Positions 424-62,455 of a stretch of 64,000 nucleotides of DNA are shown in pieces (positions within the stretch are counted from its first letter, which is position 1; every line of letters starts with the position of its first letter). The notes under the pieces were generated by a model that was given only the letters and a program-made list of their open reading frames with translations, ran no database searches and was not told where the DNA came from. The stretch is from Pristiophorus japonicus (Eukaryota), in contig NC_091977.1 of NCBI RefSeq assembly GCF_044704955.1, positions 12,400,001 through 12,464,000 on the forward strand, given 5' to 3'. The position numbers and the translations under genes are program-made.

Positions 424-634
424 TGTTGTGTATCTGTAAAGCATGCACTCCCATGTTCCGCCACCAGGGAGCGCATCCCCTGAAGTCCCAAGGGATCCCA
501 GCATCCCTTGGGAGCACTGTATATAAGCCGGCCCGTAAGGCCTGTTACTCACTCTGGAGTGTCTCAATAAAGTCTGAGGTCACTGTTACTTTAACCTCCC
601 TGTGTGCAGTCTCATTTGTGTTAGGAACACAACA
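424..634 (+). repeat. 5' LTR, Gypsy family A
   Basis: TGTTG...CAACA termini, TATATAA at 520, AATAAA; direct repeat of 4825-5035. Confidence 0.97.
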
Positions 635-666
635 ACTAGCGATGAGTATACGAATCCAACACAAAG

Positions 667-3600
667 ATGCAGAAAACTGTGGGCATCCTGGAGAAGTTCT
701 CGGCGGGTGAGGACTGGGAAGCCTATGTCGAACGGTTAGACCAATACTTTGTAGCCAACGAGCTGGACGGAGAAGGAAGTGCTGCAAAAAGGAGAGTGGT
801 CCTCCTCACGGTCTGCGGGGCACCGACCTACAGCCTCATGAAGAATTTTCTGGCTCCGGTGAAACCCACAGATAAGTCGTATGAGGAGCTGTCGACACTG
901 GTTCGGAAGCATCTTAACCCGAGGGAGAGCATGCTGATGGCGAGGTATCGGTTCTACACGTACCAGCGATCTGAAGGTCAGGAAGTGGCGAGCTACGTCG
1001 CCGAGCTAAGGCGACTTGCAGGACAATGTGAGTTTGATGGCTACCTGGAGCAAATATTCAGTGACTTTTTTGTACTGGGCATTGGCCACGAGACCATCCT
1101 ACGAAAACTTTTGACTGTAGAGACACTGACCCTAAGTAAGGCCATTGCGATAGCACAGACGTTTATGTCCACCAGTGATTACACCAAAATAAATCTCAGC
1201 ACACAAGTGCTAGCAATGTTCATAAATTAACTGGAACTGCGTTTGCGAGCAGAAATGTACAGGGCAGAAACCACGAGTCTGCAACTGCCAGCTGGCCTCA
1301 GGTGACCCAGATGGCTCAGAGTTTGCAACAAAGGATAAATGCAAGGCAATTCACACCTTGTTAGTGTTGTGGAGGCTTCCATTCAGCCTATTCATGCCGC
1401 TTCAAAGGGTATGTTTGCAAAAGCAGTGGAACAATGGGGCACCTCCAACGAACTTGCAGACGAGCTGCAAGCTCTGCAAAACCTGCTAACCATCACGTGG
1501 CAGAGGAAGATGGGTCCATGGTGGACCAAAGCAATTTCGAGCCTCAGAGAGAGGAGGCAGATGCTGAAGTACATGGGGTGCACACATTTTCGACGAAATG
1601 TCCATCTATAATGCTAAACGTAAAATTGAATGGCTTACCCGTAGCCATGGAACTGGACACTGGTGCTAGCCAATCCATCATGAGTAAAAAGATGTTTGAG
1701 AGATTGTGGTGCAACAAGGCACTCAGCCCAGCCCTGAGCCCCATCCAAACGAAACTGAGAACGTACACCAAAGAGCTTATCACTGTCCTGGGCAGCACCA
1801 TGGTCAAGGTCACCTACGAGAGCACGGTGCATGAACTGCCACTCTGGATTGTCCCGGGCAATGGCCCCACGCTGCTTGGAAGGAGCTGGCTGGGCAAAAT
1901 CCGCTGGAACTGGGATGACATCCGAGCGCTATCACATGTCGATGAGGCCCCATGTACCCAGGTTCTTAACAAATTTCCTTCCCTTTTTGAGCCAGGCATT
2001 GGAAACTTTTCGGGGGCGAAGGTGCGGATCCACTTGGTCCCAGAGGCACGACTCATTCACCACAAGGCACGAGCGGTACCTCACATGATGAGGAAGAGAG
2101 TGGAAATTGAGCTGGACAGGCTGCAACGCGAGGGCATCATCTCCCCAGTGGAATTCAGAGAGTGGGCCAGCCCGATTGTTCCAGTACTCAAAAGTGATGG
2201 CACGGTCAGGATTTGCAGCGATTATAAAGTAACTATTAATCATTTCTTGCTACAGGACCAATACCCACTACCTAAGGTAGACGACCTATTTGTGACGCTG
2301 GCAGGAGGCAAGATGTTCACCAAGCTCGACCTGACTTCGGCCTACATGACGCAGGAGCTGGAGGAGTCTTCGAAGGGCCTCACCTGTATCAACACGCACA
2401 AGGGACTGTTCATCTACAACAGATGCCTGTTTGGAATTCGGTCGACTGCAGCGATCTTCCAGAGAAACATGGAGAGCCTACTCAAGTCAGTACCATGCAC
2501 GGTGGTTTTTCAGGACGACATATTGGTCACGGGTCGGGACACCGTCGAGCACCTACAAAACCTGGAGGAGGTTCTCCAGCAACTGGATCGCGTAGGGCTG
2601 CGGCTGAAGAGGTCGAAATGAGTCTTCATGGCAACAGAAGTGGAGTTTTTGGGGAGAAAGATCGCAGATGATGGCATTCGGCCCACAGACGCCAAGACAG
2701 AGGCTGTCAGTAACGCGCCCAGGCCACAGAACGTCACGGAGCTACAGTCGTTCCTGGGAATCGTCAACTATTTTGGTAACTTCTTACCAGGGTTAAGCAC
2801 CCTTTTAGAACCCCTACATATGTTATTGTGTAAAGGTGAGAACTGGGTATGGGAAAAAAAACATGTAATTGCTTTTGAGAAAGCCAGCAACATTTTATGC
2901 TCCAACAAGCTGCTTGTATTGTATAACCTGTGTAAAAGACTCATGCTAGCATGTGATGCATCATCGTACGGAGTCGGGTGTGTATTATAGCAAGCTAACG
3001 TTGCGGGGAAGTTGCAACGTGTCGCCTATGCTTCCAAGAGCTTGTCTAAGGCCGAGAGGGCCTACAGCATGATTGAGAAAGAGGCATTAGCGTGTGTGTT
3101 TGGGGTAAAGAAAATGCATCAGTACCGTGACAGATGATTTATCATTTTCAAATGGCCTCAAATTTGAGCTGGAAACCGATCACAAGCCCCTCATATCCCT
3201 ATTCGCTGAAAACAAGGGGATAAATACTAATGCCGCAGCCCGCATACAAAGTTGGGCACTCGCGCTATCAGCGTATAACTATACCATCCACCACAGGCCA
3301 GGCACCGAGAACTGTGCAGATGCTCTCAGTCGGCTACCATTGACCACCATGAAGGTGAAAATGGCGCAGCCTGCAAACTTGTTGATAGTGGCGCAGCCCG
3401 CAGACTTGCTGATGGTCATGGAAGCGTTTGAAAATGATAAATCACCTGTCACGGCCCGTCAGATTAGGACTTGGACCAGCCAAGATCCTCTGATGTCCCT
3501 AGTAAAAAACTGTGTACTGCATGGGAGCTGGGCCAGCATCCCCGTTGAAATGCAAGAGCCAATCAAGCCATTCTAGCGGCGAAAGGGCGAGCTGTCCATT

Positions 3601-4793
3601 CAGGCAGACTGCCTGTTGTGGGGTAACCGTGTAGTGCTACCAAAAAAGGCCATGGAGACGTTCATCTCGGATCTCCACAGCACACACCTGTGGATAGTAA
3701 TGATGAAAGCGATAGCCAGATCCCACGTATGGTGGCCCGGTATCGACTCTGACTTAGAGTCCTGTGTACGGCAATGCAGCGTGTGTGCTCAGTTGAGCAA
3801 AGCGTCCAGAGAGGAACCACTAAGTTTGTGGTCCTGGACCTCCAGACCATGGTCGAGGATCCATGTCAACTATGCGGGCCCGTTTCTTGGTAAAATATTC
3901 CTCGTGGTGGTGGGTGCTTTTTCAAAATGGATTGAATGTGAAATAATGTCGGGAAGCACCGCCACCGCCACCATTGAAAGCCTGAGGGCCATTTTTGTCA
4001 CCCACGGCCTGCCTGACATACTGGTCAGTGACAACGGGCCATGTTTCACCAGTGCTGAATTTAAAGAATTCATGACCCGTAATGGGATCAAACATGTCAC
4101 CTCGGCCCTGTTTAAACCAGCCTCCAATGGGCAGGCAGAATGAGCAGTACAAACAATCAAACAGAGCCTCAAATAAGTCACAGGAAGCTCACTCCAAACC
4201 CGCCTATCCCGAGTACTGCTCAGCTACCGCACGAGACCCCACTCGCTCACAGAGGTGCCCCTGGCTGAGCTACTCATGAAAAGGAGACTTAAAACCAACT
4301 CTCGCTGGTTCACCCCAACCTGCATGATCAGGTAGAGAGCAGGCGGCAGCAACAAAATGTAAACGATGGTCGCGCCACTGTGTCACGGGAAATTGATCTG
4401 AATGACCCTGTGTATGTGCTAAACTATGGACATGGCCCCATGTGGATCGCGAACACGGTGATAGCTAAAGAAGGGAGTAGGGTGTTTGTAGTCAAATTAG
4501 ACAATGGACAAATTTGCAGAAAGCACCTGGACCAAACGAGGCTGCAGTTCACAGACTGTCCTGAACAACCCACAGCAGGCACCATCTTTTTCGAGCCCCC
4601 AACACACACCCAAAGGATCAGGAAATTGAACCCATCACACCCAAACAGCCCAGCAAGGCCAGACTCACCCAGCAGCCCTGCAGGGCCAACAACACGCCAG
4701 CCCAGCGAGGGCACAGCCAACACACCAGAACAGACATTTGTACCGAGGCGGTCCACCAGGGAAAGAAAGGCTCCCGACCGCCTCACCTTGTAA
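667..4793 (+). pseudogene. Gypsy gag-pol polyprotein pseudogene
   Basis: Consecutive ORF pieces 667-1230, 1434-2621, 2628-2990, 3127-3576, 3616-4143, 4380-4793 with gag, zinc knuckle, protease, RT, RNase H and integrase motifs, broken by stops and frameshifts. Confidence 0.95.
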
Positions 4794-4824: not shown

Positions 4825-5035
4825 TGTTGTGTATCTGTAAAGCATGCACTCCCATGTTCCGCCACCAGGGAGCGCATCCCCTGAAGTCCCAAGGGATCCC
4901 AGCAGCCCTTGGGAGCACTGTATATAAGCCGGCCCCTAAAGCCTGTTACTCACTCTGGAGTGTCTTAATAAAGACTGAGGTCACTGTTACTTTAATCTCC
5001 CTGTGCGTAGTCTCATCTGTGTTAGGAACACAACA
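4825..5035 (+). repeat. 3' LTR, Gypsy family A
   Basis: Direct repeat of 424-634, preceded by a PPT. Confidence 0.97.
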
Positions 5036-6550: not shown

Positions 6551-8086
6551 TATCATGTATGTACATTCTATTTGTAGCCACCAGATGGCGTCATTGTTGG
6601 AGGCCACTGAGCAGCACGCACATGGTGCTGCTCAGGTATAAAAGGCCAGCCATTTTGAGAGTCAGGCACTTTGGGCCTAAATAAAGCAGAGCCAAGGTTG
6701 TACCTTGTTTAGTTAAACAGTACTCAGTTTGAAACTTTATTGCATACTTAACATTTGGCGACGAGAATACAAGAAACTTTCTTTGCAAAATGGGCACGGT
6801 TGGATTTTTAGAGCGATTTGTGGAGGGAAAAGATTGGGCAGACTTTGTGAGCCGTTTGAACCAGTATTTCGTGGCCAACAAAATGGAGGGGGTCGATGAT
6901 GCAGATCGGCGCGGGGCCGTGTTCCTCACTGTGTGCGGTTCGAAGATCTACGGTCTGATAAAGAATCTACTCATGCCCAGTGATCCAACAGAGAAAACGT
7001 ACGAGGAGTTGTGTACATTGGTACGGGAGCACCTCAAGCCAGACGACGGCATCATCGTCTCGAGATACAGGTTTTATACACACGTTCGATCGGAGGGCCA
7101 GAGCGCGGCGGAATTCGTTGGCGACCCGAGACGTCTAGCGGGACCGTGCAAGTTGGGGACGGTGTTGGCAGACATGCTGCGGGACTTCTTGCACAAGTTG
7201 ATCTTGCGCAAACTTCTGACGGTGGAGGAGTTGGATTTAAAAAGGGCCATCCAGATCACTCAATCATGTATGACGATGGACAGGAGTCTAAAGCAAATAT
7301 CGGTGAAGAACCAAACCTCGGCAAGTACTGTAAATGTGATTGATTCGGCATTTAGCAGAGCAGCACATGGCTGCCCAAAGTCTGCCAGCGGGAACGTATC
7401 TGACTTCTCCGTGTTGGCGTTGTGGGGGAGATCATTGGCACCAGCAGTGCCAATTTAAGCAATATAGTTGCAAAGGCTGTCTGAGGGTGGGGCATCTCCA
7501 GCGCAAGTGTCCGCAGATGAGCAAGCGAGTTGCGACAAACCACGTGGCGGATGAGTCAGACTAGCGCGGATCCGGATACGCAATCCGAGATGCCAGAGGA
7601 GGAAGTGTATGGGCTGTACTCTTTTATAACCAAGAGTAAACCAATTTTGATTAATGTGAAGTTTAACGGGATACCGGTATCGCTGGAACTGGACACAGGA
7701 CCGAGTCAATCGATCATGAACGAGAGAGCATTTATTAAGCTGTGGAATACTACGACTGTGAGGTCCAGGCTGAGCCCTGTTAACACCAAGCTGCGCACGT
7801 ACACCAAACTGATAAAGGTGATTGACAGTGCACAAATTAATGTGTCATATAACATTGCGGTTCACGAGTTACCACTGTGGATTGTTCCAGGCAATGCTGC
7901 TCGGCAGGAGCTGGTTGGAGAAAATCAGATGCGACTGGAATGACATAAAGGCGTTGTCATTGGAGTAAGATACATGTGCCCAAGTATTGAACAAGTTCCC
8001 CTCGTTGTTCGAACCAGGCATCGGCAGCTTCACGGGAGCCAAGGTGCAGATCCGCGTGGACTCAGATGCAAGACCCATCCATCATA
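6551..8086 (+). mobile_element. Gypsy (Mag-like) family B: 5' LTR, gag and protease; 3'-truncated
   Basis: LTR ~6551-6753 ending TAACA, TATAAAA at 6637, AATAAA. PBS TGGCGACGAG at 6756-6765. Gag 6790-7458, two CCHC-like knuckles (7340-7564), protease ELDTG. Ends at a CR1 tail. Confidence 0.9.
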
Positions 8087-16599: not shown

Positions 16600-18324
16600 T
16601 GTAGTGTTTGTAGGCACCTTTGGTAATGACTCCACGAGGCAGGGTATGGTACTTAAAACTGTGTAGACTATAGTCCTTTATTTGCAGCTCCTTCCTCAGG
16701 TTCGGCCATGGGCGTCGGGAATCCACTTCTTTCGACGATGTTCACCTCTTGGGAGTCCTGTCCCGGCCCAGAAGGTGGAGTTTGGGCTTTCGGTCCTGGA
16801 GATTTCATCGCGGTGTTGTGGAGTCGTCGCCGCGCAGTCGAGCTGGATGGTGGGATCTCTGGAGGCAGCGATGGATCCACGTTTGATGTCGATTGCTGGA
16901 GCCCGGAGGCCGTCGTCACTTCGACCGAATTGGACCAGGTTCATCCAATTCCTTCCCAGCAGCGTGTGACCTTCGCCAGCAATGATCCACAGGAGGACTT
17001 TGTTCAACAAGCCACCCTGGGAGACCTGGACGTCCACGCTGCCAACCACTGGAATTTGAACTTTGGTGTAGGTGAGCAGCTTCGCTTGGACAGGATGCAG
17101 TTTTGGTCGATTGGCGGGATTTATCCCAAGTTTTTCAAAAATCGTTTGGCTCATCAGAGACTGGCTCGCCCCTGTCTTGATCTCCATAGAAACTGGGACT
17201 CCGTCGAAGTCTACTTCCATCGTCCATGGAGAACTATCGGTGGAGCAGGTATAAACTCCATACTCTAATTCCAGGGGTTGAGCAGCTTCACCTTTATCTG
17301 TGTCAGAGCCCCGGTGATCAGCCAACTCATCAGAGATGCGATGAGTAGAGCTTTTTCTGCACATTCTTTGAAAGTGCCCTTTCTCTTTGCAGCCTTTGCA
17401 AGTGTAGTCTTTCTAGCGGCACTGGTGGGTCCTGTGGTTTCCCCCACATCGCCAGCTCGGGGCCATCTGGTTGGCCCCATGTGCCGGACTCAGGGTTGCG
17501 GGACTCGGGGCAACATTTCTGCCTTTAGAAGTATCTATGCGGTGCACTGCGTTCGCTGGTTTAGAGTCCTGGGTCAGTATTCGCCTGGAGTCACCGACCG
17601 AAACCATGTGGGCCTGGCTCACTTGAATTGCTTTCTGCATGGTGACTGTGATGTCGGCAGAGAGCAATTTGTGTAGGAGGCCCTCGTGGCCAATTCCGAT
17701 GACAAATATGTCCCTTAGTTCTTCATTAAGGTGGTCTCCAAAATCACACGGTGCAGCTAGTCTTCTTAAATGTGCAGCATACTTAGTAATTTCTTGGCCT
17801 TCGGGTCGCCGCTAAGTGTAGAACTGGTGCCTGGCTGTGAGGATGCTTTCTTTCGGTTTTAGTTGCTCCTGTATAAGTGTTACAAGTTCCTCATAGCTCT
17901 TGGTTATTGCCTTCTCCGGGGCTAGCAAGTCCCTGATGAGACAATGGATGGTGGGCCCACAACTGTTAAGCAGGATGGTCCTGCGCTTGTTCGGTCGTGT
18001 AGCCTGTGTGTCCCCATCCAGGTCGTTGACTATGAAGAAATGTTCCAATCTTTCTACAAAAGCATCCCAATCTTACCCATTGTAAGTTGCTGAGATTCAA
18101 CATGCTGAGTGTGTAGTTCGTGACCTGGTATCCTCGTCGCCAGTTGTAGTGTATGTAGGCACCTTTGGTAATGATTCCACGAGGCAGGATATGGTACTTA
18201 AAACGGTGTGCAGGTAACCCTTAGATCTCCAGCAGCAGGTGGTGTACAGGTAAGGTGTGTACAGTGTAAGGGTACATTCAGTGTTACAGACATCATACAA
18301 CAAAACAAGCATGCATATATAACA
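16600..18324 (-). mobile_element. Gypsy family D: 1.7-kb gag+protease-only LTR element
   Basis: Perfect TSD CAAAC (16595-16599 / 18325-18329). 5' LTR 18145-18324, partial 3' LTR 16600-~16690. PBS TGGCGACGAGGAT. Gag pieces and degenerate protease (MEIKTGAS..LLGRNW); no RT or integrase. Confidence 0.88.
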
Positions 18325-19675: not shown

Positions 19676-20935
19676 CCCCTCAAATTCCTGGGACATTGGA
19701 ACTGGTTCTGGGGGAGGTGGGACCAGTACAAACTGCACGGTCTGCACCTGGGCAGGACCGGAGCCAATGTCCTGGGGGGAGTGTTTGCTAGTGCTGTTGG
19801 GGAGGGGTTAAACTAATATGGCAGGGGGATGAGAACCTATGCAGGGAGACGGAGGGAAGTAGAATGGGGACAGAAGCAAAAGATAGAAAGACGAAAAGTA
19901 AAAGTCGAGGGCAGAGAAACCCAAGGCAAAAAGGAAAAAGGGCCAAATTACAGCAAAATTCAAAAGGGGCAAAATGTGTTAAAAGGACATGCCTGAAAGC
20001 TCTGTGCTTCAATGTGAGGAGTATTCGGAATAAGGTGGACAAATTAACTGCACAGATAGCAGTTAACGGATGTGATGTAATTGGCATCACGGAGACATGG
20101 CTCTAGGGTGACCAAGGCTGGGAACTCAACATCCAAGGGTATTCAACATTCAGGAAGGATAGAAAGAAAGGAAAAGGTGGTGTTGCTGGTTAAAGAGGAA
20201 ATTAATGCAATAGTAAGGAAGGACATTAGCTTGGATGATGTGGAATCGGTATGGGTGGAGCTACGGAATACCAAAGGGCAGAAAATGCTAGTGGGAGTAG
20301 TGTACAGACCACCAAACAGTAATAGTGAGGTTGGGGACAACATCAAACAAGAAATTAGGGATGCGTGCTGTGATATCTTCACAGAGCACAGCACAAACAG
20401 CTTCCACCATGGCAGGCAGCTCTCTCGGAAGCCTCCGGAAATCTGCCTGGTTCTGTTTATTATTGACTATGCAGTTGCAGTACACAATACGTCCACATCA
20501 ACAGTGTGGAGCTACAAACATTACAAGCTTACAGACATTACACTTCTCCCTCCTTAATGAAGAAGCCATCATAACAAACATCATACATAACTTTCATGTT
20601 TATACATAACACAGGATATAAACTTATTTTTTTTTCCATATTTACAAATTTAACTTTACCACTTGTTTTCTGTTTCGAAGAGGGTACCTTCGCTCTCGAA
20701 CAGAACCTTCCAAACCTGGTGTTGATTTCACAATCATTCGAGGCTCATCCTGAGGAATGTTTTTTTCCACGGAATTTCCTTGATTTTCATTTGAACTCAC
20801 TCTAACTTCAGGCTCTTTGTTTTCCTGACTCGGACTCAGACTTTCATTCTGATTCTCTCCTGGATTTGTTTCCAGTACATTGGATTTAGGATTTGCTACT
20901 GGTGTATCAAAACTATCTGATGAGTCAGAAATAAT

Positions 20936-23937: not shown

Positions 23938-24093
23938 GCTATAAGAAGTAGAAAGGAATCAAAAGGTGATGTCACAGCCAATGGGGTAAGTGATTGGCTG
24001 GTGATTGGTGAGTAGCTTTTCTTTTTCTTTTTATATCAGTAAGTAAACTGTAGCATTGTTATTACCAATTTAAGGGTATCTAAGGGTTAAGGT

Positions 24094-25041
24094 ATGGCAG
24101 GAGAGATCGGTCACGTGATATGCTCCTCCTGTGCCATGTGGGAACTCAGGGACGCTTCCGGTGTCCCTTACGACTACATGTGTAAGAAGTGTATCCGCCT
24201 CCATCTCCTGATGGACCGTGTTGCGGAATTGGAGCTGAGGGTGGATTCACTCTGGAGCATCCACGATGCTGAGAATGACATAAGTGGCACGTGTAGTGAG
24301 TTGGTCTTACCGCATGAGAAGGATCCACAGCCAGCTAGGGAATGGAAGACCAGCAGGAAGAGTAGTACAAAGAAGGTAGTGCAGGGGTCCCATCTGGTCA
24401 TCCCCCTGCAAAACAGATACACTGTTTTGAGTGCTGTTGAGGGAGATGACTCATTAGGGGAGAGCAACAGCAGCCAAGTTCATGGCACCATGGCTGGCTC
24501 TGTTGTACAGGAGGGCATAAAAAAGAGTGGGAGAGCGATAGTGATAGGGGATTCAATCATAAGGGAAATAAATAGGCGTTTCTGCGGCCGCAATCGAGAG
24601 TCCAGGATGGTATGTTGCCTCCCTGGTGCAAGGGTCAAGGATGTCTCCGAGCGAGTGCAGGACATTCTGAAAAGGGAGGGAGAACAGCCAGTTGTCGTGG
24701 TGCACATTGGTACCAACGACATAGGTAAAAAAAGGGATAAGGTCCTACGAGACGAATTTAAGGAGCTAGGAGTTAAATTAAAAAGTAGGTCCTCAAAAGT
24801 AGTAATCTCGGGATTGCTACCAGTGCCATGTGCTAGTCAGAGTAGGAATCACAGGATAGCGCAGATGAATACATGGCTTGAGCAGTGGTGCAGCAGGGAG
24901 GGATTCAAATTCGTGGGGCATTGGAACAGGTTCTGGGGGAGGTGGGACCAGTACAAACCGGACGGTCTGCACTTGGGCAGGAACGGAACCAATGTCCTAG
25001 GGGGAGTGTTTGCTCGTGCTGTTGGTGAGGAGTTAAACTAA
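24094..25041 (+). CDS. CR1 ORF1p, intact 315 aa: zinc finger, leucine zipper, SGNH/GDSL esterase
   Basis: CSSC..CKKC, heptad leucines, then IGDS, PGA, HIGTND and DGLH blocks. Confidence 0.9.
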   Translation: MAGEIGHVICSSCAMWELRDASGVPYDYMCKKCIRLHLLMDRVAELELRVDSLWSIHDAENDISGTCSELVLPHEKDPQPAREWKTSRKSSTKKVVQGSHLVIPLQNRYTVLSAVEGDDSLGESNSSQVHGTMAGSVVQEGIKKSGRAIVIGDSIIREINRRFCGRNRESRMVCCLPGARVKDVSERVQDILKREGEQPVVVVHIGTNDIGKKRDKVLRDEFKELGVKLKSRSSKVVISGLLPVPCASQSRNHRIAQMNTWLEQWCSREGFKFVGHWNRFWGRWDQYKPDGLHLGRNGTNVLGGVFARAVGEELN

Positions 25042-25196
25042 TATGGCACGGGGATGGGAACCAATACAGGGAGACAGAGGGAAACAAAAAGGAGACAAAA
25101 ACAAAAGACAGAAAAGAGACGAGTAAAACTGGAGGGCAGAGAAACCAAAGGCAAGAAACAAAAAGGACCTCTGAATATAAAAGGGCTGCAGAAGGG

Positions 25197-27964
25197 GTGA
25201 AAACTAAAAATCATGGTTTAAAAACTAGGATGAAAACACTCTACCTAAATGCACGCAGCATTAGAAATAAAGTAAATGAGTTGACGGCACAAATCATTAC
25301 AAATGGGTATGATTTGGTGACCATTACAGAGACATGGTTGCAAGGTGGCCAGGACTGGGAATTAAACATACACGGGTATCTGACAATTCGGAAAGATAGG
25401 CAGGAAGGGAAGGGAGGTGGGGTAGCTCTGTTAATAAGGGATGATATCAGGGCAGTTGTGAGGGATGATATTGGCTCCAATGAACAAAATGTTGAATCAT
25501 TGTGGGCGGAGATTAGAGATAGTAAGGGGAAAAAGTCACTGGTCGGCGTAGTTTATAGGCCCCCAAATAATAACTTCATGATGGTGCGGGCAATAATCAA
25601 GGGAATAAAGGAGGCATGTGAAAAAGGAACGGCAGTAGTTATGGGGGATTTTAACCGACATATCGATTGGTCAAATCAAATCGCAGGGGGTAGCCTGGAG
25701 GAGGAATTCATAGAATGCATACGGGATTGTTTCTTAGAACAGTATGTAACAGAGCGTACAAGAGAGCAAACCATTTTGGATCTGGTCCTGTGTAACGAGA
25801 CAGGAAAAATAAACGATCTCCTCGTAAAAGATCCTCTCGGAATGAGTGATCACAATATGGTTGAATTTGTAATACAGATTGAGGGTGAGGAAATTGTGCC
25901 AGAAACGAGAGTACTATGCTTAAACAAAGGGGCCTACAGTGGGATGAGGGCAGAGTTGGCTAAAGTAGACTGGAAACAAGGACTAAACGGTGGCACAATT
26001 GAGGAACAGTGGAGGACTTTTAAGGAGCTCTTTCATAATGCGCAACAAAAATATATTCCAGTGAAAAAGAAGGGCGGCAAGAGAAGAGATAACCAGCCGT
26101 GGATAACCAAAGAAATAAAGCAAAGTATCAAATCAAAGACCAATGCGTATAAGGTGGCCAAGGTTAGTGGGAAACTAGAGGATTGGGAAGATTTTAAGCA
26201 ACAGCAAAGAATGACTAAAAAAGCAATAAAGAAAGGGAAGATAGATTACGAAGGTAAACTTGCGCAAAACATAAAAACAGATAGTAAAAGCTTTTACAGA
26301 TACATAAAATGGAAAAGAGTGACTAAAGTAAATGTTGGTCCCTTAGAAGATGAAAAGGGGGATTTAATAATGGGAAATGGCTGAGACCTTAAACAATTAT
26401 TTTGCTTCGGTCTTCACAGTGGAAGACACAAAAACCATGCCAAAAATTGCTGGTCATAGGAATGTGGGAAGGGAGGACCTTGAGATGATCACTATCACTA
26501 GGGAGGTAGTGCTGGACAGACTAATGGGATTGAAGGTAGACAAGTCCCCTGGTCCTGATGAAATGCATCCCAGGGTATTAAAAGAGATGGCGGAAGTTAT
26601 AGCAGATGCATTTGTTATAATCTACCAAAATTCTCTGGACTCTGGGGAGGTACCAGCGGATTGGAGAGCAGCTAATGTAACGCCTCTGTTTAAAAAAGGG
26701 GGCAGGCAAAAGGCAGGTAACTATAGGCCGGTTAGTTTAACATCTATACTGGGGAAAATGCTTGAAACTATCATTAAGGAAGAAATAGCGGGATATCTAG
26801 ATAGGAATAGTGCAATCAAGCAGACGCAGCATGGATTCATGAAAGGGAAATCATGTTTAACTAACTTACTGGAATTCTTTGAGGATATAACGAGCATGGT
26901 GGATAGAGATGTACCGATGGATGTGGTGTATTTATATTTCCAAAAGGCATTCGATAAGGTGCCACACAAAAGGTTACTGCAGAAGATAAAGGTACGCGGA
27001 GTCAGAGGAAATGTATTAGCATGGATCGAGAATTGGCTGGCGAACAGAAAGCAGAGAGTCGGGATAAATGGGTCCTTTTCTGGTTGGAAATCAGTGGTTA
27101 GTGGTTGCCACAGGGATCAGTGCTGGGACCACAACTGTTTACAATATACATAGATGACCTAGAGGAGGGGACAGAGTGTAGTGCAACAAAATTTGCAGAT
27201 GACACTAAGATTAGTGGGAAAGCGGGTTGTGTAGAGGACTCAGAGAGGCTGCAAGGAGATTTGGATAGGTTAAGCGAATGGGCTAAGGTTTGGCAGATGG
27301 AATACAATGTCGGAAAGTGTGAGGTCATCCACCTTGGGAAAAAAAACAGTAAAAGGGAATATTATTTGAATGGGGAGAAATTACAACATGCTGTGGTGCA
27401 GAGGGACCTGGGGGTCCTTGTGCATGAATCCCAAAAGGTTAGTTTGCAGGTGCAGCAGGTAATCAGGAAGGCAAATGGAATGTTGGCCTTCATTGCGAAA
27501 GGGATGGAGTACAAAAGCAGGGAGGTCTTGCTGCAACTGTATAAGGTATTGGTGAAGTCGCACCTGGAGTACTGCGTGCAGTTTTGGTCACCTTACTTAA
27601 GGAAGGATATACTAGCTTTGGAGGAGGTACAGAGACGATTCACTAGGCTGATTCGAGAAATGAGGGGGTTAACTTATGATGATAGATTGAGTAGACTGGG
27701 TCTTTATTCCTTGGAGTTCAGAGGATGAGGGGTGATCTTATAGAAACATTTAAAATAATGAAAGGGATAGACAAGATAGAGGCAGAGAGGTTGTTTCCAC
27801 TGGTCGGGGAGATTAGAACTAGGGGACACAGCCTCAAAATACGGGGGAGCCAATTTAAAACCGAGTTGAGAAAGAATTTCTTCTCCCAGAGGGTTGTGAA
27901 TCTGTGGAATTCTCTGCCCAAGGAAGCAGTTGAGGCTGGCTCAATGTTTTCAAGTCAAAGATAA
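25197..27964 (+). pseudogene. CR1 ORF2 (APE endonuclease and RT), frameshifted
   Basis: ORFs 25197-26384, 26377-27153, 27105-27728, 27725-27964 with APE and RT (KFADD) motifs; at least three small indels. Confidence 0.93.
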
Positions 27965-29522
27965 ATAGATTTTTAAGCAATAAGGGAATTAAGGATTACG
28001 GGGAGAGGGCGGGTAAGTGGAGCTGAGTCCACGACCAGATCAGCCATGATCTTATTGAATGGCGGAGCAGGCTCGAGGGGCTAGATGGCCTACTCCTGTT
28101 CCTAATTCTTATGTTCTTATGTTCTTATGCTATGTCGTCTCTTGGGATTTCTACTGATAGCTTCGACCGCTGGACTCATAGCTTTAAAACGTTCCCGGTC
28201 GTGTCTATATTCCCCCAAATGTCCGATTACACCTGCCATATTAATCTCTAGCTGTTCACACCGTGTGCTGAATTTTACCTCAGATTTTGTAGCTTTTTTC
28301 TAAAGACAGAAACGTCCAAAGTCTCTCTGTTGGCTGGCTGAATCCTTCACCAACAAAATTTAAGCTTTAAATCATCCTAAACATCCCATCTCAATCGACA
28401 AATGTGATATGTTCACAGAGCACAGCATACACAGCTTCCAACATGGCAGGCAGCTCTCTCGAAAGCCTCCGGAAATGTGTCTGGTTCTGTTTATTATTAA
28501 CTATGCAGTTGCAGTACACAATACGTCCACATCCACAGTGTGGCGCTACAAACATTGCAAGCTTACAGACATTACACATGCAATAAAGGTACAGCAGTTA
28601 TCATGGGCGACTTTAATCTACATATTGATTGGTCTAACCAAACTGGTAGCAATGTGGTGGAGGAGGATTTCCTGGAGTGTAATAGGGATGGTTTTTTAGA
28701 CCAATATGTCGAGGAACCAATGAGAGGGCTGGCCATCATAGACTGGGTGATGTGTAAAGAGAAAGGACTAATTAGCAATCTTGCTCTGCGAGGCCCCTTG
28801 GGGAAGAGTGACCATAATATAGTAGAATTCTTTATTAAGATGGAGAGTGACACAGTTAATTCAGAGACTAGGGTCCTGAACTTAAGGAAAGATAACTTTG
28901 ATGGTATGAGATGTGAATTGGCTAGAATAGACTGGCAAGTGATAGTTAAAGGGTTAGGATAGTGTTAAATCAAAGGAAAAGGCATATAAATTCACCAGAA
29001 AAAGCAGCAAACCTGAGGACTGGGAGAATTTTGTAATACAGCAGAGGAGGACAAAGGGTTTAATTAGGAGGGGGAAAATAGAGTATGAGAGGAAGGTTGC
29101 TGGGAACATAAAAACTGACACAAAAGCTTCTATAGATATGTGAAAAGAAAAAGATTTGTGAAAACAAACGTAGGTCCCTTGCAGTCAGATTCAGGTGCAT
29201 TTATAATGGAGAACAAAGAAATGGCGGACCAGTTAAACAAGTACTTTGGTTCTGTCTTCATGAAGGAAGACACAAATAACCTTCCGGAAATACTAGGGGA
29301 CCGAGTGTCTAGTGAGAAGAAGGAAGTGAAGGAAATCCTTATTAGTCAGGAAATGGTGTTCGGAAAATTGATGGGATTGAAGGCCAATAAATCCCTGGGG
29401 CCTGATAGTCTGCATCCCAGAGTACTTAAAGTAGCCCTAGAAATAGTGGATGCATTGGTGATCATTTTCTAACAGTCTATTGACTCTGGATCAGTTCCTA
29501 TCAGTTTCTATGAGATCCCCTC

Positions 29523-29584: not shown

Positions 29585-29970
29585 CTGGGGGAGGAAAGAG
29601 ACATTGAGTTAACTCAATTAAATTCATCTTTATTAAACGGTCCATGGTGACAAAACCCATTACGTGGCACTGAGAAACATGTGAGCACAAAGAGGTGACA
29701 GCCACCAGAAGTAGATTGGATTGAAATACTCAGAGAGGAAATGGACTGGCTCCTGATTGTAAAGGGACGTGGGATTGATGTTAATGGAGGAGGCAGATGG
29801 AATTATCCTCAGTGTGTCTGTGGATCTGAACAACATATCAGCCTCGAAATTGGGCTGCCTAAACAGTCTCCAAAGCTGTTAGACGTTTCTCAGGCCTCAG
29901 CTCCTCACTGGGAGTGAATTTGCTCTTGTCTTTGTTCAACATTTTTTTATCACTTTCACCATATCATTCC

Positions 29971-30339
29971 TGACAACCTGTAGTCTCATCACATCCTGAG
30001 TCACCTTTTCTCCTCTCCCATTCTCGACATGTACGTGACAGAAGTAGTCGCTGGTGTCGTTCAGCCCCAGGTCCCTCATCCTTATGGCGGCGTCTCCTTG
30101 GGTTAGGTTTCCGATCAGCTCATAACGATCTCCTTGATTTACAGTAAGTGAGTCAGTATAGTGAGAACCAGCGGCGAGGGAACGTGTGAGAGTAAAAACA
30201 GCAGACTCTTCGCATGGAATCTCCTTCATCCAGAGGACAGTGATGGAGCTCGGATACCGGCCAGGAGCATTGAATGTGCAGGGCAGTGTGGCAAAATCTC
30301 CCTTCTTCCCAGTCACTGGCTGTGTATTGTTCTCATCAG
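29971..30339 (-). pseudogene. Ig V-set domain exon, Siglec-15-like (probably pseudogenised)
   Basis: Acceptor ttctctatctcAG (30341-30340), phase 1. Open frame with TLPCTF, VLW, RYELIGN..GDAAIRMRDLGLNDTSDYFC. The expected phase-1 donor position reads A|GG instead of G|GT. Confidence 0.85.
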
Positions 30340-39246: not shown

Positions 39247-39612
39247 TGTTATATATGCAGACTATAGTTATACTCTCTGTGTAGTCACTGTATAGTTGCA
39301 TAAGATGGAGACTTGTTTCCTGATGTACTATCAATAAGGGTTACACTGTGCATATACTACGCTGGCACCACTAGAGGGTGCAACTGGTGGAGACCGGGGT
39401 CTTCTACCCCTGTAGCAGAGGCTGTCCACCAGAGGGCAAAGCGGTGGGAGACCTGAGGGTCACCTGCATAGGTGTGCAGGGCCCAGTATAAAAGGCTGCC
39501 CACCATGCTTGTGCCTCACTCTGGAGTTACAAATAAAGGACCAAGGTCACTACAGTTTGAGTACAACACATTGCCTCGTGGAGTCATTCATAAGTACATT
39601 ACAGACATAACA
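39247..39612 (+). mobile_element. Solo LTR (366 bp, Gypsy-type)
   Basis: TGTTAT...ATAACA termini, TSD GAGAC/GGGAC, TATAAAA at 39487, AATAAA at 39532. Confidence 0.9.
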
Positions 39613-40113: not shown

Positions 40114-40441
40114 TGATAGAGTATTCAAACAGGCTCATTTAGACAGACTGTGAAAATTCACAGACCCCCAAGTCAAGGCTGCTACATGCAGTTCGGCATG
40201 TTGCATTAACTCATCAATCAACTTGACATTTTCGGACCTTGGGTAGTGAGCCAATAAGGTCAAAGAAGGCGAGTTATTTTCTGTAAATTGATCCAGGTAT
40301 AAAATACAGCCATTTTGACCATGTGTCTCAGTAAGACAAAGAAACTGCCAATCAGCCAGCAGCTTGTTACTCTCTGACAAGATTAAAAAGTTAAAACTAC
40401 CATCGGAGTTCGTATTTCATTGGAAATTAAGAGATCTAACA
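40114..40441 (+). repeat. ERV 5' LTR
   Basis: TG...CA termini, CCAAT, TATAAAA, ATTAAA; direct repeat of 46820-47147. Confidence 0.97.
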
Positions 40442-40445
40442 ATTT

Positions 40446-40463
40446 TGGCGCTGCGAACAGGAT
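40446..40463 (+). promoter_or_regulatory. Primer binding site, best fit tRNA-Ser(CGA)-like
   Basis: TGGCGCTGCGAACAGGAT versus the recalled vertebrate Ser(CGA) complement TGGCGCTGTGAGCAGGAT (16/18). Confidence 0.65.
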
Positions 40464-40732
40464 CGCTGAGGAAAGAAACTGAATTTTCGACATCGGACCT
40501 ACATATTGAGGTAAGGACTCCTCTTTTTAAAAAAAGTACTCGGTCAAAAGTCTAAATTCGCCTCTCCTTCTACGCGATTCCGAAAGCCTCCAGTTTGCGA
40601 ACCCTCCGGTTGGTAGTCGGCTCAAGGTCCCATAGACATCTAAACTTCGGCGGTGTGTTAGTTAATTAATCACCGACCTATTGATTGGCTAGCAAGCCTA
40701 CGACTCGAGACCCCAGTAAAGAACTCAGTATA

Positions 40733-42296
40733 ATGGCAGCAGGAGATAAGAGCAAAGAATTGCCTACAACTGTTAAAGGTGGGCAAGCACCACCTGAGGT
40801 TTCGCTAGATTTAATTCTCGAATAGTTGAAAGAATACAAAGAGCAACAATTCAACTTATCTAAAACCTGTATTAAGATCGAACAAAAGTACGGAACCTCC
40901 AAAGGACAATGGTCCTTGGACGAGATTAAAAGCGTCTGGGGAAAAACGACCCATATAAAACATAAAGAGCGAACTAGATGGTCCCTAGCGGTTATGGGAC
41001 AGATCTGAAACCGGAATGAAATTATAATGCGTTCCCAACATGATCGAGAACTGACCAGTACAAAGGATCAATTGCAAGCTGTTTGTGCACAGCTGCGACA
41101 GAAACAGCTTGAATTTGAAAAGCTGGAAGCGGAAGTTAAAGATCTTAAAGGTGAAATTAAAGAATGGAAAAAATCATTAGGTCAAGAGACAGTAATAGGA
41201 AAAGGAAAATGTATCGGTCAATTCCCAGGGTACCCATGTTTGGATAAATTAAAAGCGCAAACCCGAAGACACGACCGAGGAATAGATACGAATTCTGAAT
41301 CCTCTGACGATACAGTGACGGAGGATGAAGAATTAGGGGTGCGCTTTGCCCCATTTAAAAAAAGACGAGTTGTAGTCAAATCAGAAAAGACTGCGGATGA
41401 GGGCGGAACCAAAAAAACAAAGAGAAGGGTGTACGAAGAATACTTATTTCATGATCCGGCAGACCCAGAGAAAATTGATAAATGGTCCAAGGAATTGCCC
41501 AATCCAAAGAAAGGGGGAGTAAAAACGTGGGACCAATTGGGACCACTTAAGAAATATATATCAACTTCATCCCTGGGATGGAGTGCAAATTTTGACCATA
41601 ATGGTGCCAAAAACACAGGGAAGAAAATTGCACGACAAGGTAGATGAAGCTTTGGGGCAGAATGAGCAAGAATTAGACGCAGGATGGGAGGCGATTAAAC
41701 ACTGGCTGCAAGCCTTCAGTACAGCTAAGACAGACTGGGGAAAAATTGCAGCTTGCCAACAGAAAGGAACAGAGGAGGTCCTGGAGTATGACGAGCGGTT
41801 TAGATGCACGTGGCTAGAACATTCGGGTATGAATAATACGGATGAGGAAATGGATGAACAAGTGTTTGGACCCCTGAAAGCAGCTTTCGTGGCAGGTCTA
41901 AAGCCAGAACTGTCCAAAATACTTAAGGTAGTGTTACCGGACTGGGAAGGTAGAGGAACTACCTTTGCAGCATTGGTGGATCGATGTAACCAATTAGACT
42001 GGGATATGGGAGCTAAAGTTCGAGCTGTACAGGCTATGGGATGGAAATCCCAGGATTCCGATAAACAGTTATTAGGAAAATTACCCGGAAAATGTCATTA
42101 TTGTGGGAAAGAAGTTCACTGGGCCAAGACATGCAGGGCAAAACAGCAAGGTCGTGGCTGGGGAAGAGGACGCAGCCAGGGATACAATTCAGCCAACAAA
42201 CCAGGCTTGTCACAAGATAACGATCTCATAGAAGCATTTAAGCGACTGACAATACAACAACAGAAGGAGTTACTTGGGATAGCAAAAAACGATTAG
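40733..42296 (+). pseudogene. gag: ERV gag (2 stops, 1 frameshift)
   Basis: ATG 40733 is in frame with ORFs 40826 and 41027. Coiled coil, YPCL late-domain-like motif, MHR-like QKGTEEVLEYDERF, single CX2CX4HX4C. Confidence 0.9.
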
Positions 42297-42357
42297 AGCC
42301 CACCCTGGCCCCCTCCTCGCACTAATACAACAAAGGGGAGATGGGCTATATACAACT

Positions 42358-45167: not shown

Positions 45168-45191
45168 TAAGGACAATTACTTTTTGCGAAA

Positions 45192-46544: not shown

Positions 46545-46819
46545 GGGAAGGTTGTTTACTGGTTGAATTAAGATATTGATTTGGATTAAATTGGAATAAG
46601 GTTAATTAACCTACTAAAACCAGACTTCCATTGTGGCCACGATGGAACTCGGGTTGGTGTAAATTTGTGTGGAAGCTACTAGTCCGGACATGTGGCGAAA
46701 CACATCAACAAATTTTAGAAGGAAACTCTATTAACATGTATGAAATTATTTTGTAGAATGTTTAATCAGTGATACCTGAAGTTTTATGATTCAGTTTGTG
46801 AAAGAATCAAAGGGGGGAT

Positions 46820-47147
46820 TGATAGAGTATTCAAACAGGCTCATTTAAACAGACTGTGAAAATTCACAGACCCCCAAGTCAAGGCTGCTACATGCAGTTC
46901 GGCATGTTGCATTAACTCATCAATCAACTTGACATTTTCGGACCTTGGGTAGTGAGCCAATAAGGTCAAAGAAGGCGAGTTATTTTCTGTAAATTGATCC
47001 AGGTATAAAATACAGCCATTTTGACCACGTGTTTCAGTAAGACAAAGAACCTGGCAATCAGCCAGCAGCTTGTTACTCTCTGCCAAGATTAAAAAGTTAA
47101 AACTACCATCGGAGTTCGTATTTCATTGGAAATTAAGAGATCTAACA
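46820..47147 (+). repeat. ERV 3' LTR
   Basis: Direct repeat of 40114-40441. Confidence 0.97.
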
Positions 47148-50100
47148 ATCTTCAGCCAGAACTGCTGAGTGGATGATCCGTATCGGCCTCATCCCAAGGT
47201 CCCCACCAGCATACAAGCCACTCTTCAGCCAATTCGATTCACTCCAGGTGAGATCAAGAGATGGCTGAGTGCACTGGGTAGAGCAAAGGCTATGGGCCCC
47301 AACAACATCCCAGCTGTTGTGCTGAAGACTTGTGCTTCAAAACTAGCCATGCTCTAGCCAAGCTGTTCCAGTACAGCTACAACACTGGCATCTAACCGAC
47401 AATGTGGAGAACTGCCCAGGTATGTCCGATCCAAATCCAGACTGGACAATTACTGCTCCTTCAGTCTACTGTCAATCATCAGCAAAGTGATTGAAGGTAT
47501 CGTCGACAGTGCTATCAAGTGACACTTACCAATAATCTGCTCACCGATGCCCAGTTCCACCATGACCACTCGGCTACAGACCTCAGAACAGCTGTGGTCC
47601 AAACATGGACAAGAGAACTGAATTCCAGAGATGATATGAGAGTGATTGCCCTTGGTATCAAGGCAGCATTTGACCGAGTGTGGCATCATGGAGCCCTAGT
47701 AAAAGTGAAGTCAATGGGAATCAGGGGTAAACTCTCCACTGGCTAGAGTCAGACCTAGCACAAAGGAAACTGGTTGTGGTGGTTGGAGATCAATCATCAC
47801 AGCCCCAGGACAACACTGCAGGAGTTCCTCAGGGCAGTGTCCTGGGCCCAACCATCTTCAGCTGCTTCATCAATGATCTTCCCTCCATCATAAGGTCAGA
47901 AGTGGGGATGTTCACTGATGACTGCACAGTGTTCAGTACAATTCATAACTCCTCAAATAATGAAGCAGTCCATGCCCCATGCAGCAGGACCTGGACAACA
48001 TTCAGGCTTGGGCTGATAAGTGGCAAGTAATATTCGAGTCACACAAATGGCAGGCAATAACAATCTCCAACAATCAAGAGTCTAACCATCACCACTTGAC
48101 ATTCAACGGCCTTTCCCTCGCCAAATCCCCCACCATCAACATCCTGGGGGTCAGCATATCCCAGAAACTTAACTGGACCAGCCACAAAAATACAGTGGCA
48201 ACAAGAGCAGGTCAGAGGCTGGGTAATCTGTGGCGAGTGTCTCACCTCCTGACTCGCCAAGGTCCATCGTGTCTGCGCCTGCCGACCAAGAGCTATCTAG
48301 TCTAATCCCACTTTCCAGCTTTTGGTCCGTAGTCCTGTAGGTTACGTCACTTTCAGTGCACATCCAAGTATTTTTTAAATGTGGTGAGGCAATGAGTTCC
48401 AGACCCACACTACCCTCTGGGTGAAAAAATTTCCCCTCATATCTCCTCTAACCCTCTCCGCAATTACTTTAAATCTATTTCCCCTGGTTGTTGACCCCTC
48501 TGCCAATGGAAACATATCCTTCCTATCCACTCTATCTGTTGTGTTCCTAACACAGATGAGACTGCACACAGGGAGGTTAAAGTAACAGTGACCTCAGTCT
48601 TTATTAAGACACTCCAGAGTGAGGAACAGGCCTTAGGGGCTGGCTTATATACAGTGCTCCAAAGGGACGCTGGGATCCCTTGGGACTTCAGGGGATGAGC
48701 TCCCTGGTGGCGGAACATGGTGGTGGGAGTGCATGCTTTACAAATACACAACATCACTCCCCCCCAAAGTCAAAGTGAAAACTATTTACAAGGTGAGGCA
48801 GTCGGGAGCTTTTCTTTCCCTGGTGGACCGCCTCGGTACAAATGTCTGTTCTGGTGTGTTGGCTGTGCCCTCGCTGGGCTGGCGTGTTGTTGGCCCTGCA
48901 GGGCTGCTGGGTGAGCCTGGTCTTGCTGGGCTGTTGGGCGTGTTGGGTTCGATTTCCTGGTCTGGCGTGGTGTCGTTTGGTGTGTGTTGTGGGCTTGAAA
49001 AAGGTGGTGTCTGCTGTGGGTTGTTCAGGGCAGTCTGTGAACCGCAGCCTCGTTTGGTAAAGGGGCTTTCTGCAAATTTATTCATTGTCTAGTTTGACTA
49101 CAAACATCTTACTCCCTTCTTTAGCTATCACTGTGCCCGCGATCCACTTGGGACCATGTCCTTAGTTTAGCACATACAGATGGTCATTCAGATCAATTTC
49201 CCGTGACACAGTGGCGCGACCATTGTTTACATTTTGTTGCTGCCGCCTGCTCTCTACCTGATCATGCAGGTTGGGGTGAACCAGCGAGAGTTGGTTGGAA
49301 GTCTCCTTTTCATGAGTAGCTCAGCCAGGGGCACCTCTGTGAGCGAGTGGAGTCTCGTGCGGTAGCTGAGCAGTAGTCGGGACAGGCGGGTTTGGAGTGA
49401 GCCTTCTGTGACTCGTTTAAGGCTCTGTTTGATTGTTTGTACTGCCCGCTCTGCCTGCTCATTGGAGGCTGGTTTAAATGGGGCTGAGGTGACATGTTTG
49501 ATCCCATTGCGGGTCATGAATTCTTTAAATTCGGCACTGGTGAAACATGGCCCGTTGTCATTGACCAGTATGTCAGGCAGATCGTGGGTGACAATCATGG
49601 CCCTCAGGCTTTCAATGGTGGCGGTGGCGGTGCTTCCCGACATTATTTCACATTCAATCCATTTTGAAAAAGCATCCACCACCACGAGGAAGATTTTACC
49701 AAGAAACGGGCCCGCATAGTCGACCATGGATCCTCGACCATGGTCTGAAGGGCCAGGACCACAAACTTAGTGGTGCCTCTCTGGGCGCATTGCTCAACTG
49801 AGCACACACGTTGCATCGCCGTACACAGAACTCTAAGTCAGAGTCGATACCGGGCCACCACACATGGGATCTGGCTATCGCTTTCATCATTACTATCCAC
49901 AGGTGTGTGCTGTGGAGATCCGAGATGAACGTCTCTGTGCCCTTTTTGGGTAGCACTACACGGTTACCCCACAACAGGCAGTCTGCCTGAATGGACAGCT
50001 CGTCCTTTCGCCGCTGGAACGGCTTGATTAGCTTTTGCATTTCAATGGGGATGCTGGCCCAGCTCCCATGCAGTTCACAGTCTTTTACTAGGGACAGCTG

Positions 50101-53685: not shown

Positions 53686-54989
53686 TTGACCATGGCGCTG
53701 CCCAGGTCAGTGATGAGCTCTTTGGTGTAAGTTCTCAGTTTCGTGTGGATAGGGCTCAGGGCTGGTCTGAGTACCTTGTTGCACCACAGTCTCTCAAACA
53801 TCTTTTTACTCATGATGGATTGGCTAGCGCCAGTGTCCAGTTCCATGGCTACGGGTAAGCCATTCAATTTTACGTTTAACATTATAGGTGGACATAAACG
53901 CCTGTGCTAGCACAATGGTCTTACTGAGGGTCAGTGTCTCTACAGTCAAAAGTTTTTGTAGGATGGTCTCATGGCCAATGCCCAGTACAAAAAAGTCTCT
54001 GAGCATTTGCTCCAGGTAGCCATCAAACTCACATTGTCCTGCAAGTCACCTTAGCTCGGCGACAAAGCTCGTCACTTCCTGACCTTTAGATCGCTGGTAC
54101 ATATAGAACCGATACCTCGCCATCAGCATGCTCTCCCTCGGGTTAAGATGCTCCCGAACCAGTGTACATAGCTCCTCATATGACTTATCTGTGGGTTTCA
54201 CCGGAGCTAGAAGATTCTTCATGAGGCTGTAGGTCGGTGCCCCGCAGACCGTGAGGAGGACCACTCTTCTTTTTGTAGCGCTTCCTTCTCCGCCCAGCTC
54301 GTTGGCTACAAAGTACTGGTCTAACCATTCGACATAGGCTTCTCAGTCCTCACCCTCCGAGAACTTCTCCAGGATGCCCACAGTTTGCTGCATCTTTGCA
54401 TTGGATTCGTATACTCGTCGCCAGTTGTTGTGTTCCTAACACAGATGAGACTGCACACAGGGAGGTTAAAGTAACAGTGACCTCAGTCTTTATTAAGACA
54501 CTTCAGATTGAGTAACAGGCCTTAGGGGCCGGCTTATATACAGTGCTCCCAAGGGGTGGAACATGGGAGTGCATGCTTTACAGATACACAACACTATCCA
54601 GGTCCCCCATAATTTTATACACCTCAATCAGGTCTCCCTTCAACTTCTTCTGTTCCAAAGAAAGCAGACCCAGCATCTCCAATCTTTCCTCATAGCTAAA
54701 ATTCGCCAGTCCAGGCAACATTCTTGTAAATCTCCTCTGCACCCTTTCCCGTACATCTTTCCTGTAATGTGGTGACCAGAACTATGCACAGTATTCCACC
54801 TATGGCCTAAACAGTGTTCTATACAGTTCAAGCATAATGTCCTTGCTCTTGTATTCCATGCCTCGACTAATAAAGGAAAGTTGGCTCTTTGGCAATGGTA
54901 ACAGATGGCATCCTCAACCAAACTTTGACCCCTGAGTGTCAGTGAGTGAGGGTGTGGGGTGAAATTGCCCCTTTTTTTAAAGAGGCCTG

Positions 54990-61078: not shown

Positions 61079-61200
61079 AATTTGTTGTTGCAGATGTAAA
61101 CCAGCTGATCCTGTATTAAATCCCGAGGTCATCAGAGAGCACAGTGTTTAAAGAGCAAGGTCTCACTGGCACTGCATCAGGACCGGATTCTCAATCCCGA

Positions 61201-62244: not shown

Positions 62245-62455
62245 TGTCATGTTCAGAATAACTCCACAAGACTATACTGTAAGGTTAAACTGTTGTGACC
62301 TTGGTCTCTTTAATGTAACTCCAGAGTAAGGAAGCAGCTTGGTAGACTGCCTTTTATACTTGCTTGCCCGGGGTGTGCAGGTGACCTTTGGGTCTCCAAC
62401 AGGTGTGCCCCCTGGTGGCAAGTCTTACACACTAGTAAAGTTTACATACATAACA
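62245..62455 (-). mobile_element. Solo LTR (211 bp, Gypsy-type)
   Basis: TGT...ACA termini, perfect TSD GAGAG, TATAAAA on the minus strand at 62358, ATTAAA. Confidence 0.9.

Follow-up and report, generated by a model that had tools for sequence, protein, structure and literature searches.

A putative CTCF site at a fixed distance from the TATA box in the LTRs of one shark Gypsy clade

The LTRs of one clade of Gypsy retrotransposons, found in a 64,000-bp stretch of the Pristiophorus japonicus genome (contig NC_091977.1, positions 12,400,001 to 12,464,000; the window below), carry a candidate binding site for CTCF or its paralog CTCFL at a nearly constant distance from the TATA box. Judged from sequence comparisons, the site appears to have been acquired once and kept, and its most likely role, in which our confidence is about even, is that of a direct activator of the promoter.

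Motif–TATA pairs and the elements that carry them

The 5' LTR of element A, a 211-bp TG...CA sequence at positions 424..634 (+), is a direct repeat of the 3' LTR at 4825..5035 (+), with 9 mismatches in 211 bp and with the 5-bp target duplication GTACT/GTACC as flanks. Its core CCACCAGGGAGCGC (461..474, +) starts 59 bp upstream of a TATA box at 520..526, and the same core at 4862 (+) in the 3' LTR precedes the TATA box at 4921 by 59 bp as well. Upstream of the core, at -17 to -9 from it, lies the motif TGCACTCCC (444..452, and 4845-4853 in the 3' LTR; +), which is of the type read by CTCF fingers 9–11. On the other side the core is followed by a second conserved block, TGAAGTC (481..487, +; positions 21-27 from the core start), and by the poly(A) signal AATAAA (566..571, +). 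None of the nine mismatches of the LTR A pair falls within the first 80 bp (424-503 versus 4825-4904), which hold the upstream and core motifs; this may be due to chance (about 0.014 if mismatches are uniformly distributed). The gag-pro-RT-RH-IN part of element A, without env, extends over 646..4793 (+) with stops and frameshifts, as defined from open reading frames and Pfam matches (RVT_1, Asp_protease, RT_RNaseH, rve, and Integrase_H2C2). Pfam domains of protease, RT, RNase H, and integrase are present in elements A, A', and C, and that of the protease in D. The closest named relative of the protease-RT frame of element A is a P. japonicus protein (69% identity over 60% of the query); other named relatives, at 42-48% identity, come from catfish and sea cucumbers and include one MAG-labelled protein. 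TG...CA LTRs, a target duplication, a primer site, the pro-RT-RH-IN order, and the lack of env identify these elements as Ty3/Gypsy.

Element B is represented by its 5' LTR (6556..6753, +; the 5' end is uncertain) with the core CCACCAGATGGCGT at 6578-6591 (+), 59 bp from the TATA box at 6637, followed by the primer site TGGCGACGAG at 6756 (+) and gag; the element is truncated near 8088. The 366-bp solo LTR E (39247..39612, +; 5-bp target duplication GAGAC/GGGAC) has the core CCACCAGAGGGCAA at 39426 (+), 61 bp from the TATA box at 39487, and a second motif, CCACTAGAGGGTGC, upstream of it at 39368 (+), the two being products of a 58-bp tandem duplication of one segment. Yet another solo LTR, F (62245..62455, -), bordered by a 5-bp target duplication CTCTC, contains the perfect core CCACCAGGGGGCAC at 62418-62405 (-), 60 bp from the TATA box at 62358. 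All these core strings and TATA distances, with the second motif of E, had been listed in an initial annotation of the window and were recovered as stated when rechecked. A search pattern joining motif and TATA, fitted to the observed sites, yielded six pairs, among them one absent from that annotation: CCACCAGGGAGCTC at 48710 (-), with two mismatches and 59 bp from TATA, located in the 3' LTR (48537..48753, -) of a second family-A element, A', whose core bears one extra change and whose upstream motif is shifted out of register by a 6-nt insertion.

In the 5' LTR of A' (54426..54593, -; target duplication GATAG) the TATA box is intact and the core was lost through a deletion of ~43 bp. Element A' also contains an insertion of ~650 bp (50693-51344) with terminal inverted repeats of ~30 bp, probably a non-autonomous DNA transposon. 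Element D, with its primer site at 18142 (-) and its 3' LTR tail at 16691-16600 (-), has a decayed 5' LTR (18144..18324, -), the core of which is cut after CCACC (18242-18238), 9 nt being missing before the TGGAG block that follows. The initial annotation described family D as keeping only CACCACC; the core is indeed cut, but TATA and the poly(A) signal are gone too, so this LTR is a decayed copy that does not show family D to be without the module. The site is thus damaged in three of the eight clade LTR copies spanning it (A' 5', A' 3', and D 5'); the damage in those copies came after insertion, and the window bears no sign of motif retention at the level of the host. Several LTRs have inverted repeats at corresponding places in the motif–TATA spacer, at 486..513 in A (+; 6-nt loop) and 6607-6635 in B (+), both with 11-bp stems, at about 39462-39481 in E, where the repeat is shorter, and weakly in F. 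The hairpin region of LTR A (about 494-511, +) resembles what we take to be the ZNF143/Staf consensus, a likeness not seen in B, E, or F.

Over both strands of the whole window the consensus CCASYAGRKGGCRS has six matches with at most one mismatch, and all six lie inside Gypsy LTRs; the LTRs of the motif-bearing clade make up 1861 of the 64,000 bases. The proposed enrichment over shuffled sequence holds, as matches in 100 dinucleotide shuffles averaged 0.88 and never exceeded four, and the chance of such a match in one shuffled LTR is 0.003-0.014. The uniform orientation reported earlier was likewise found, with CCAC...GGC on the LTR sense strand in six of six motif–TATA pairs, and the core–TATA spacing stays within 59-61 bp despite the diverged spacer sequence. 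The LTRs of family C and of an endogenous retrovirus (ERV), which had been set aside as not fitting, have at least four mismatches in the best match of either.

The window as a whole is repeat-rich vertebrate DNA. It contains a host Ig V-set exon (Pfam V-set) at about 29970-30339 (-), the next exon starting near 29582; the best match of the V-set exon among solved structures is Siglec-15 (E 1.1e-9), and the LTRs lie around this Siglec-like gene. The ERV at 40114-47149 (+) has 330-bp LTRs with 6 mismatches in 330, a 4-bp target duplication ATCT, split gag-pol frames, and an env domain (Pfam), and is without the CTCF motif. LTR B (6637-6657, +) and the unrelated ERV LTR (about 40298-40317, +) both show CAGGTATAAAA and then, closely, CAGCCATTTTG just after TATA, the latter being presumably a YY1-like word. 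A second family-C LTR copy (28404-28576, -), probably solo, is 94% identical to the 3' LTR of C (20370-20542, -), in which no CTCF motif was found. A LINE at 24091-27728 (+), which we take to be CR1-like, is one of many copies and combines a GDSL/SGNH esterase domain in ORF1 with an endonuclease ORF2. A 69-bp tandem repeat (2.9 copies, 61200-61394) and a long CT-rich low-complexity tract (63100-64000) are located near the end of the window.

Origin and conservation of the motif and its likeness to CTCF sites

The initial annotation spoke of four distinct LTR types, a description that does not stand: LTRs A, B, E, and F can be aligned with one another (z 5.1-17 versus shuffles), and a 35-row gag tree unites A, A', B, and D in a single clade (100/96). 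The aligned LTRs also share a TGGAG-like block at 21-27, a CACTCTGGAG-like block after TATA, and an AGGTC-like block after the poly(A) signal. Family C is placed in another lineage by the RT tree. As E and F are solo LTRs, they are joined to the clade through LTR similarity only. LTR homology together with the single gag clade indicates that the module arose once, and convergence in four independent LTR types is ruled out by the same homology and by the gag clade of A, B, and D. The fixed spacing would accordingly reflect one origin and purifying selection rather than convergence; given one origin, the four families do not count as four independent tests. A search for longer relatives of the B gag gave none at E 1e-25 among 1155 candidates, which is weak evidence either way.

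The divergence of the clade is deep. At the protein level the Gags of A, B, and D share 42-51% identity, and at four-fold sites their genes agree at chance level (11 of 41 for A–B, and 12 of 35 and 7 of 24 for the other comparisons; random expectation 0.25-0.27). Between A, B, and E/F, in turn, 9-11 of the 12 bp of the core are identical, on par with the TATA block (8-9 of 9), while only 2-8 of the 20 nt upstream of the core and 2-6 of the 14 nt before TATA agree. The four-way alignment has its two best 12-column windows at the core and at TATA, with nine of 12 columns invariant in each. Compared with an identity of 0.30, the binomial p of the core ranges from 1.7e-3 to 1.5e-5 per pair, the pairs not being independent. 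The motif is thus conserved in excess of general LTR homology, as had been predicted, the core being kept and the flank directly upstream of it standing at chance level, and the earlier proposal of a constrained CTCF–TATA module is borne out by the conserved core and held spacing set against saturated silent sites. These comparisons support constraint on motif and spacing, with selection probably acting on the element itself. The second block at 21-27, TGAAGTC in A and TGGAGAC, TGGAGGC, or GGGAGAC in its relatives, is identical at 4-6 of 7 positions between families.

The five motif variants require at least eight changes, four of which fall on alternatives allowed by the consensus (columns 5, 8, 9, and 13); two of the remaining ones affect fixed columns (10 and 12) and two lead to bases outside those allowed at column 14. 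The G/T transversion at column 9 involves two bases that are both accepted at position 9 (PMC10484683). The distribution of changes over consensus-allowed columns favours a CTCF reading, in a way that is suggestive only.

The core expected for fingers 3–7 fits CCASYAGRKGGCRS with no or one mismatch, and the cores match 8-10 of the 11 fixed positions of CCNNNAGGGGGCGC (PMC10287918). Fingers 9–11 of CTCF are described as reading an optional upstream motif, optimally TGCAATCCC with TGC at -17 to -15 (PMC10287918), by contacts at -16, -15, -12, -10, and -9 (PMC10484683). The upstream motif TGCACTCCC of family A is identical to TGCAATCCC at eight of nine positions, and both LTRs of element A match seven of the seven positions given in the literature at shift 0, spacings of 5 or 6 bp having been considered. 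The chance of such a match is 1.4e-4 per position and ~1e-3 once five motif variants and two spacings are taken into account; TGCACTCCC had been noticed before scoring, and the scored positions come from PMC10287918 and PMC10484683. In B, both motifs of E, and F the upstream match reaches at most 4 of 7 at the two known spacings, and the upstream motif was dismissed as a clade-wide feature, being in register in family A only. A finger-1 GAG at 19-21, an optional feature whose lack does not exclude binding, was not found, the bases there being CCT, GTT, GGT, GTG, and GTT; the TGGAG block was also rejected as this GAG, because its GAG lies at 23-25, off register by 4. The core and upstream CTCF motifs of the lamprey hardly differ from their counterparts in mammals and chicken (PMC5504073), a likeness that supports the use of the mammalian motif for a shark. 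On the core match and the finger 9–11 motif of family A, the earlier assignment to the CTCF family remains credible, and the LTRs may be said to contain a credible putative site for CTCF or CTCFL.

More distant elements were obtained by scanning genome contigs for related RT, which returned 57 loci, all in prokaryotic MAG records. Many of these loci (L001-L057) have paired LTRs and target duplications within bacterial or archaeal species-representative genomes, some on contigs of >1 Mb; they are probably mis-binned animal (host) DNA. After 32 of the 57 loci, which had no usable repeat pair, had been left out, 25 pairs were kept; 22 of them (~18 distinct types, judged by eye) share short LTRs and the TGGCGACGAG primer site, two have another primer site, and one has none. 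The motif occurs in none of these 25 distant repeat pairs with better than three mismatches. Among 32 stretches, each covering the 320 nt before a primer site, none has it with at most one mismatch and one has it with two, on the minus strand and outside the LTR, which is chance level. The 568,105 outgroup bases contain seven matches with at most one mismatch, none inside the LTR stretches scanned. In a locus outside those 32 (L019), CCACCAGGTGCAGT, with a CTCF-like start and three mismatches, lies ~190 nt before the primer site (229); no TATA-like word follows it at the spacing of the shark clade, and the element is near family C in the RT tree. Since distant relatives are without the motif, it does not serve this group of retrotransposons as a general signal for replication. 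Several of the outgroup records belong to what we take to be taxa typical of sponge microbiomes. CTCF is reported to be absent from non-bilaterians (PMC12221973), and a motif-free outgroup would fit with hosts of that kind; as the outgroup LTRs are unalignable and often AT-richer, the absence of the motif is a weak test that does not single out CTCF.

Possible roles of the site

By the established core-promoter spacing, transcription starts ~30 nt after TATA, and by the usual convention the CCAC...GGC strand is the 'forward' CTCF motif. With the start assumed at TATA+30, the motif centre is located at -82.5 to -84.5. We propose that the ancestor of one shark Gypsy clade gained a CTCF/CTCFL site once, in U3, and that selection on the element would have preserved the site's distance from TATA and its direction. 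Bound ~80-85 bp upstream of the start site in the same orientation, CTCF would keep the promoter accessible and help to recruit Pol II, thereby giving a 200-bp LTR a strong, position-independent promoter, and the spread of CTCF sites through solo LTRs would be a by-product. The model for this comes from a class of mouse housekeeping promoters described as activated by CTCF independently of cohesin, in which CTCF lies at a median of ~79 bp upstream of the start, exclusively reverse motifs account for only 2%, motif mutation lowered reporter activity in 6 of 8 cases, BORIS can substitute for CTCF, and accessibility dropped upon CTCF depletion (PMC12695661). Same-strand enrichment of CTCF motifs and transcription start sites (TSSs) within 250 bp is said to begin in chondrichthyans (preprint 10.64898/2026.10.19.760054), and the CTCFL of sharks shows testis-biased expression (PMC7471279), which means that a reader is available in the germline. 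Against the link with orientation, zebrafish ctcf mutants gave no clear orientation bias at TSSs (PMC8438036); against the transfer to an LTR, the mouse class consists of housekeeping genes, and the main text describing it has no mention of TATA or LTR (PMC12695661).

The same motif evidence would serve equally if the bound protein acted architecturally, as a barrier to heterochromatin or methylation or as a cohesin anchor to downstream host enhancers. Oriented CTCF motifs are present at the TAD boundaries of the skate (PMC10115646), and CTCF anchors borne by transposable elements have been described in mammals (PMC7786948). A barrier or loop anchor has, however, no obvious need for TATA spacing kept within 2 bp across saturated divergence, and with only 1-4 CpG per LTR the scope for a methylation shield is limited, so we consider an architectural role unlikely. 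The fixed TATA distance is predicted by a direct activator and unneeded by a barrier, and direct activation was ranked first on this ground. Shielding from silencing, suggested in the initial annotation, does not provide the best fit, since the estimated position and the orientation agree better with the direct promoter-activator mode (PMC12695661). Passive inheritance of a functionless chance match would be in keeping with the descent of all families from one LTR, with the partial conservation of other LTR blocks, and with the fact that the motif was picked for matching. It is at odds with a core still identical at 9-11 of 12 positions where silent sites are saturated and the adjacent upstream flank has decayed to chance, and appears already largely refuted; we regard it as very improbable.

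The site might also be read by something else, either another zinc-finger factor recognising the core plus the TGGAG block, or as a U3 RNA element with the neighbouring hairpin. The position of the conserved block at 21-27, outside the CTCF finger-1 register, would suit such a reader, as would the inverted repeats, of different sequences, that A and B have in the motif–TATA spacer (z -3.3 each; A over 455-530). The hairpin is not significant in E (z -0.4) or F (z -1.1), and a conserved hairpin in all families was rejected, being significant in two of four. An RNA element is further disfavoured by the longest complements of the motif, 7 nt within element A and 6 nt within B, for which reason long-range pairing of the motif in element RNA was discarded too. 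The in-register upstream motif of A is specific to CTCF fingers 9–11, and the motif is missing from relatives that replicate with the same primer site. A reader other than CTCF thus seems quite unlikely to us.

Direct activation by CTCF or CTCFL can also be put in a wider form, which we hold to be doubtful: a Gypsy lineage of cartilaginous fish may have captured the co-oriented, ~80-bp CTCF grammar of jawed vertebrates and use it for core activation, with testis-biased CTCFL as the germline reader and with one family keeping both the core and the finger 9–11 motif; its solo LTRs may then have been, over a long time, one of the main suppliers of CTCF sites to shark genomes. Two solo LTRs of the window (E and F) carry motifs, the orientation of which is fixed relative to each insertion only and not to the chromosome.

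Relation to known systems

The short LTRs described for Mag C Ty3/Gypsy elements have the ends TGTNATRT/AYANAACA (PMC3601003), which A, D, E, and F fit with no or one mismatch and the 3' end of LTR B with one, the 5' end of B being uncertain; this comparison was made by eye with Table 3 of that paper. As our trees are without named Mag reference elements, the clade may be called Mag-like only. The main text of PMC3601003 has no mention of CTCF or CCACC. No report of a fixed CTCF–TATA module in fish or shark Gypsy LTRs was found in the mainly non-subscription literature covered. CTCF sites in transposons are already known; what would be new here is the constraint at the level of the element on a fixed layout relative to TATA. 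In most accounts transposon-borne CTCF sites are passengers that hosts later co-opted. In the shark clade the site is kept as strongly as TATA despite saturated silent sites, which suggests that it is required by the element itself. Should it be an activator site, the presence of CTCF motifs in a transposon would have an explanation, a natural series of intact, duplicated, deleted, and displaced sites would be at hand in which the activator mode of CTCF, with its dependence on position and orientation, could be followed outside mammals, and the clade would be indicated as a source, in the large genomes of sharks, of lineage-specific CTCF sites. CTCF ChIP data from sharks are cited as existing (PMC7471279).

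Among known retrotransposons the Drosophila gypsy element, also Ty3/Gypsy, carries sites for a host insulator protein, Su(Hw), many of them and in the 5' UTR. The shark clade differs from it in having one putative U3 site at a fixed spacing to TATA and for a different protein. In the lamprey, an early-branching vertebrate in which Gypsy-class repeats are tied to CTCF binding, LTR/Gypsy repeats 743 and 697 as well as hAT repeats are enriched in CTCF ChIP peaks (PMC5504073, Table 3), and 96 of 166 and 137 of 359 LTR/Gypsy copies overlap such peaks (PMC5504073); the likeness is one of repeat class. The mouse CTCF-activated promoters (PMC12695661) resemble the shark module in their single co-oriented motif and, if the shark LTRs start transcription at TATA+30, in its distance, ~79 bp (median) there and an estimated ~83 bp here. 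Unlike them, the shark module, known from its sequence, is located in the LTR of a TATA-containing retrotransposon, where the spacing would be held by selection on a mobile element. In mammals, CTCF sites derived from B2 SINEs, HERV/LTR groups, and MER20 were likewise spread by mobile elements, and these are mostly discussed as co-opted by the host for loops (PMC7786948, PMC7778262). The shark clade would differ from them by long-term constraint on the element, across families that are ~50% identical in Gag; if the proposed activator role is true, shark solo LTRs would be the counterpart of mouse B2 SINEs, with a site serving the element's own transcription.
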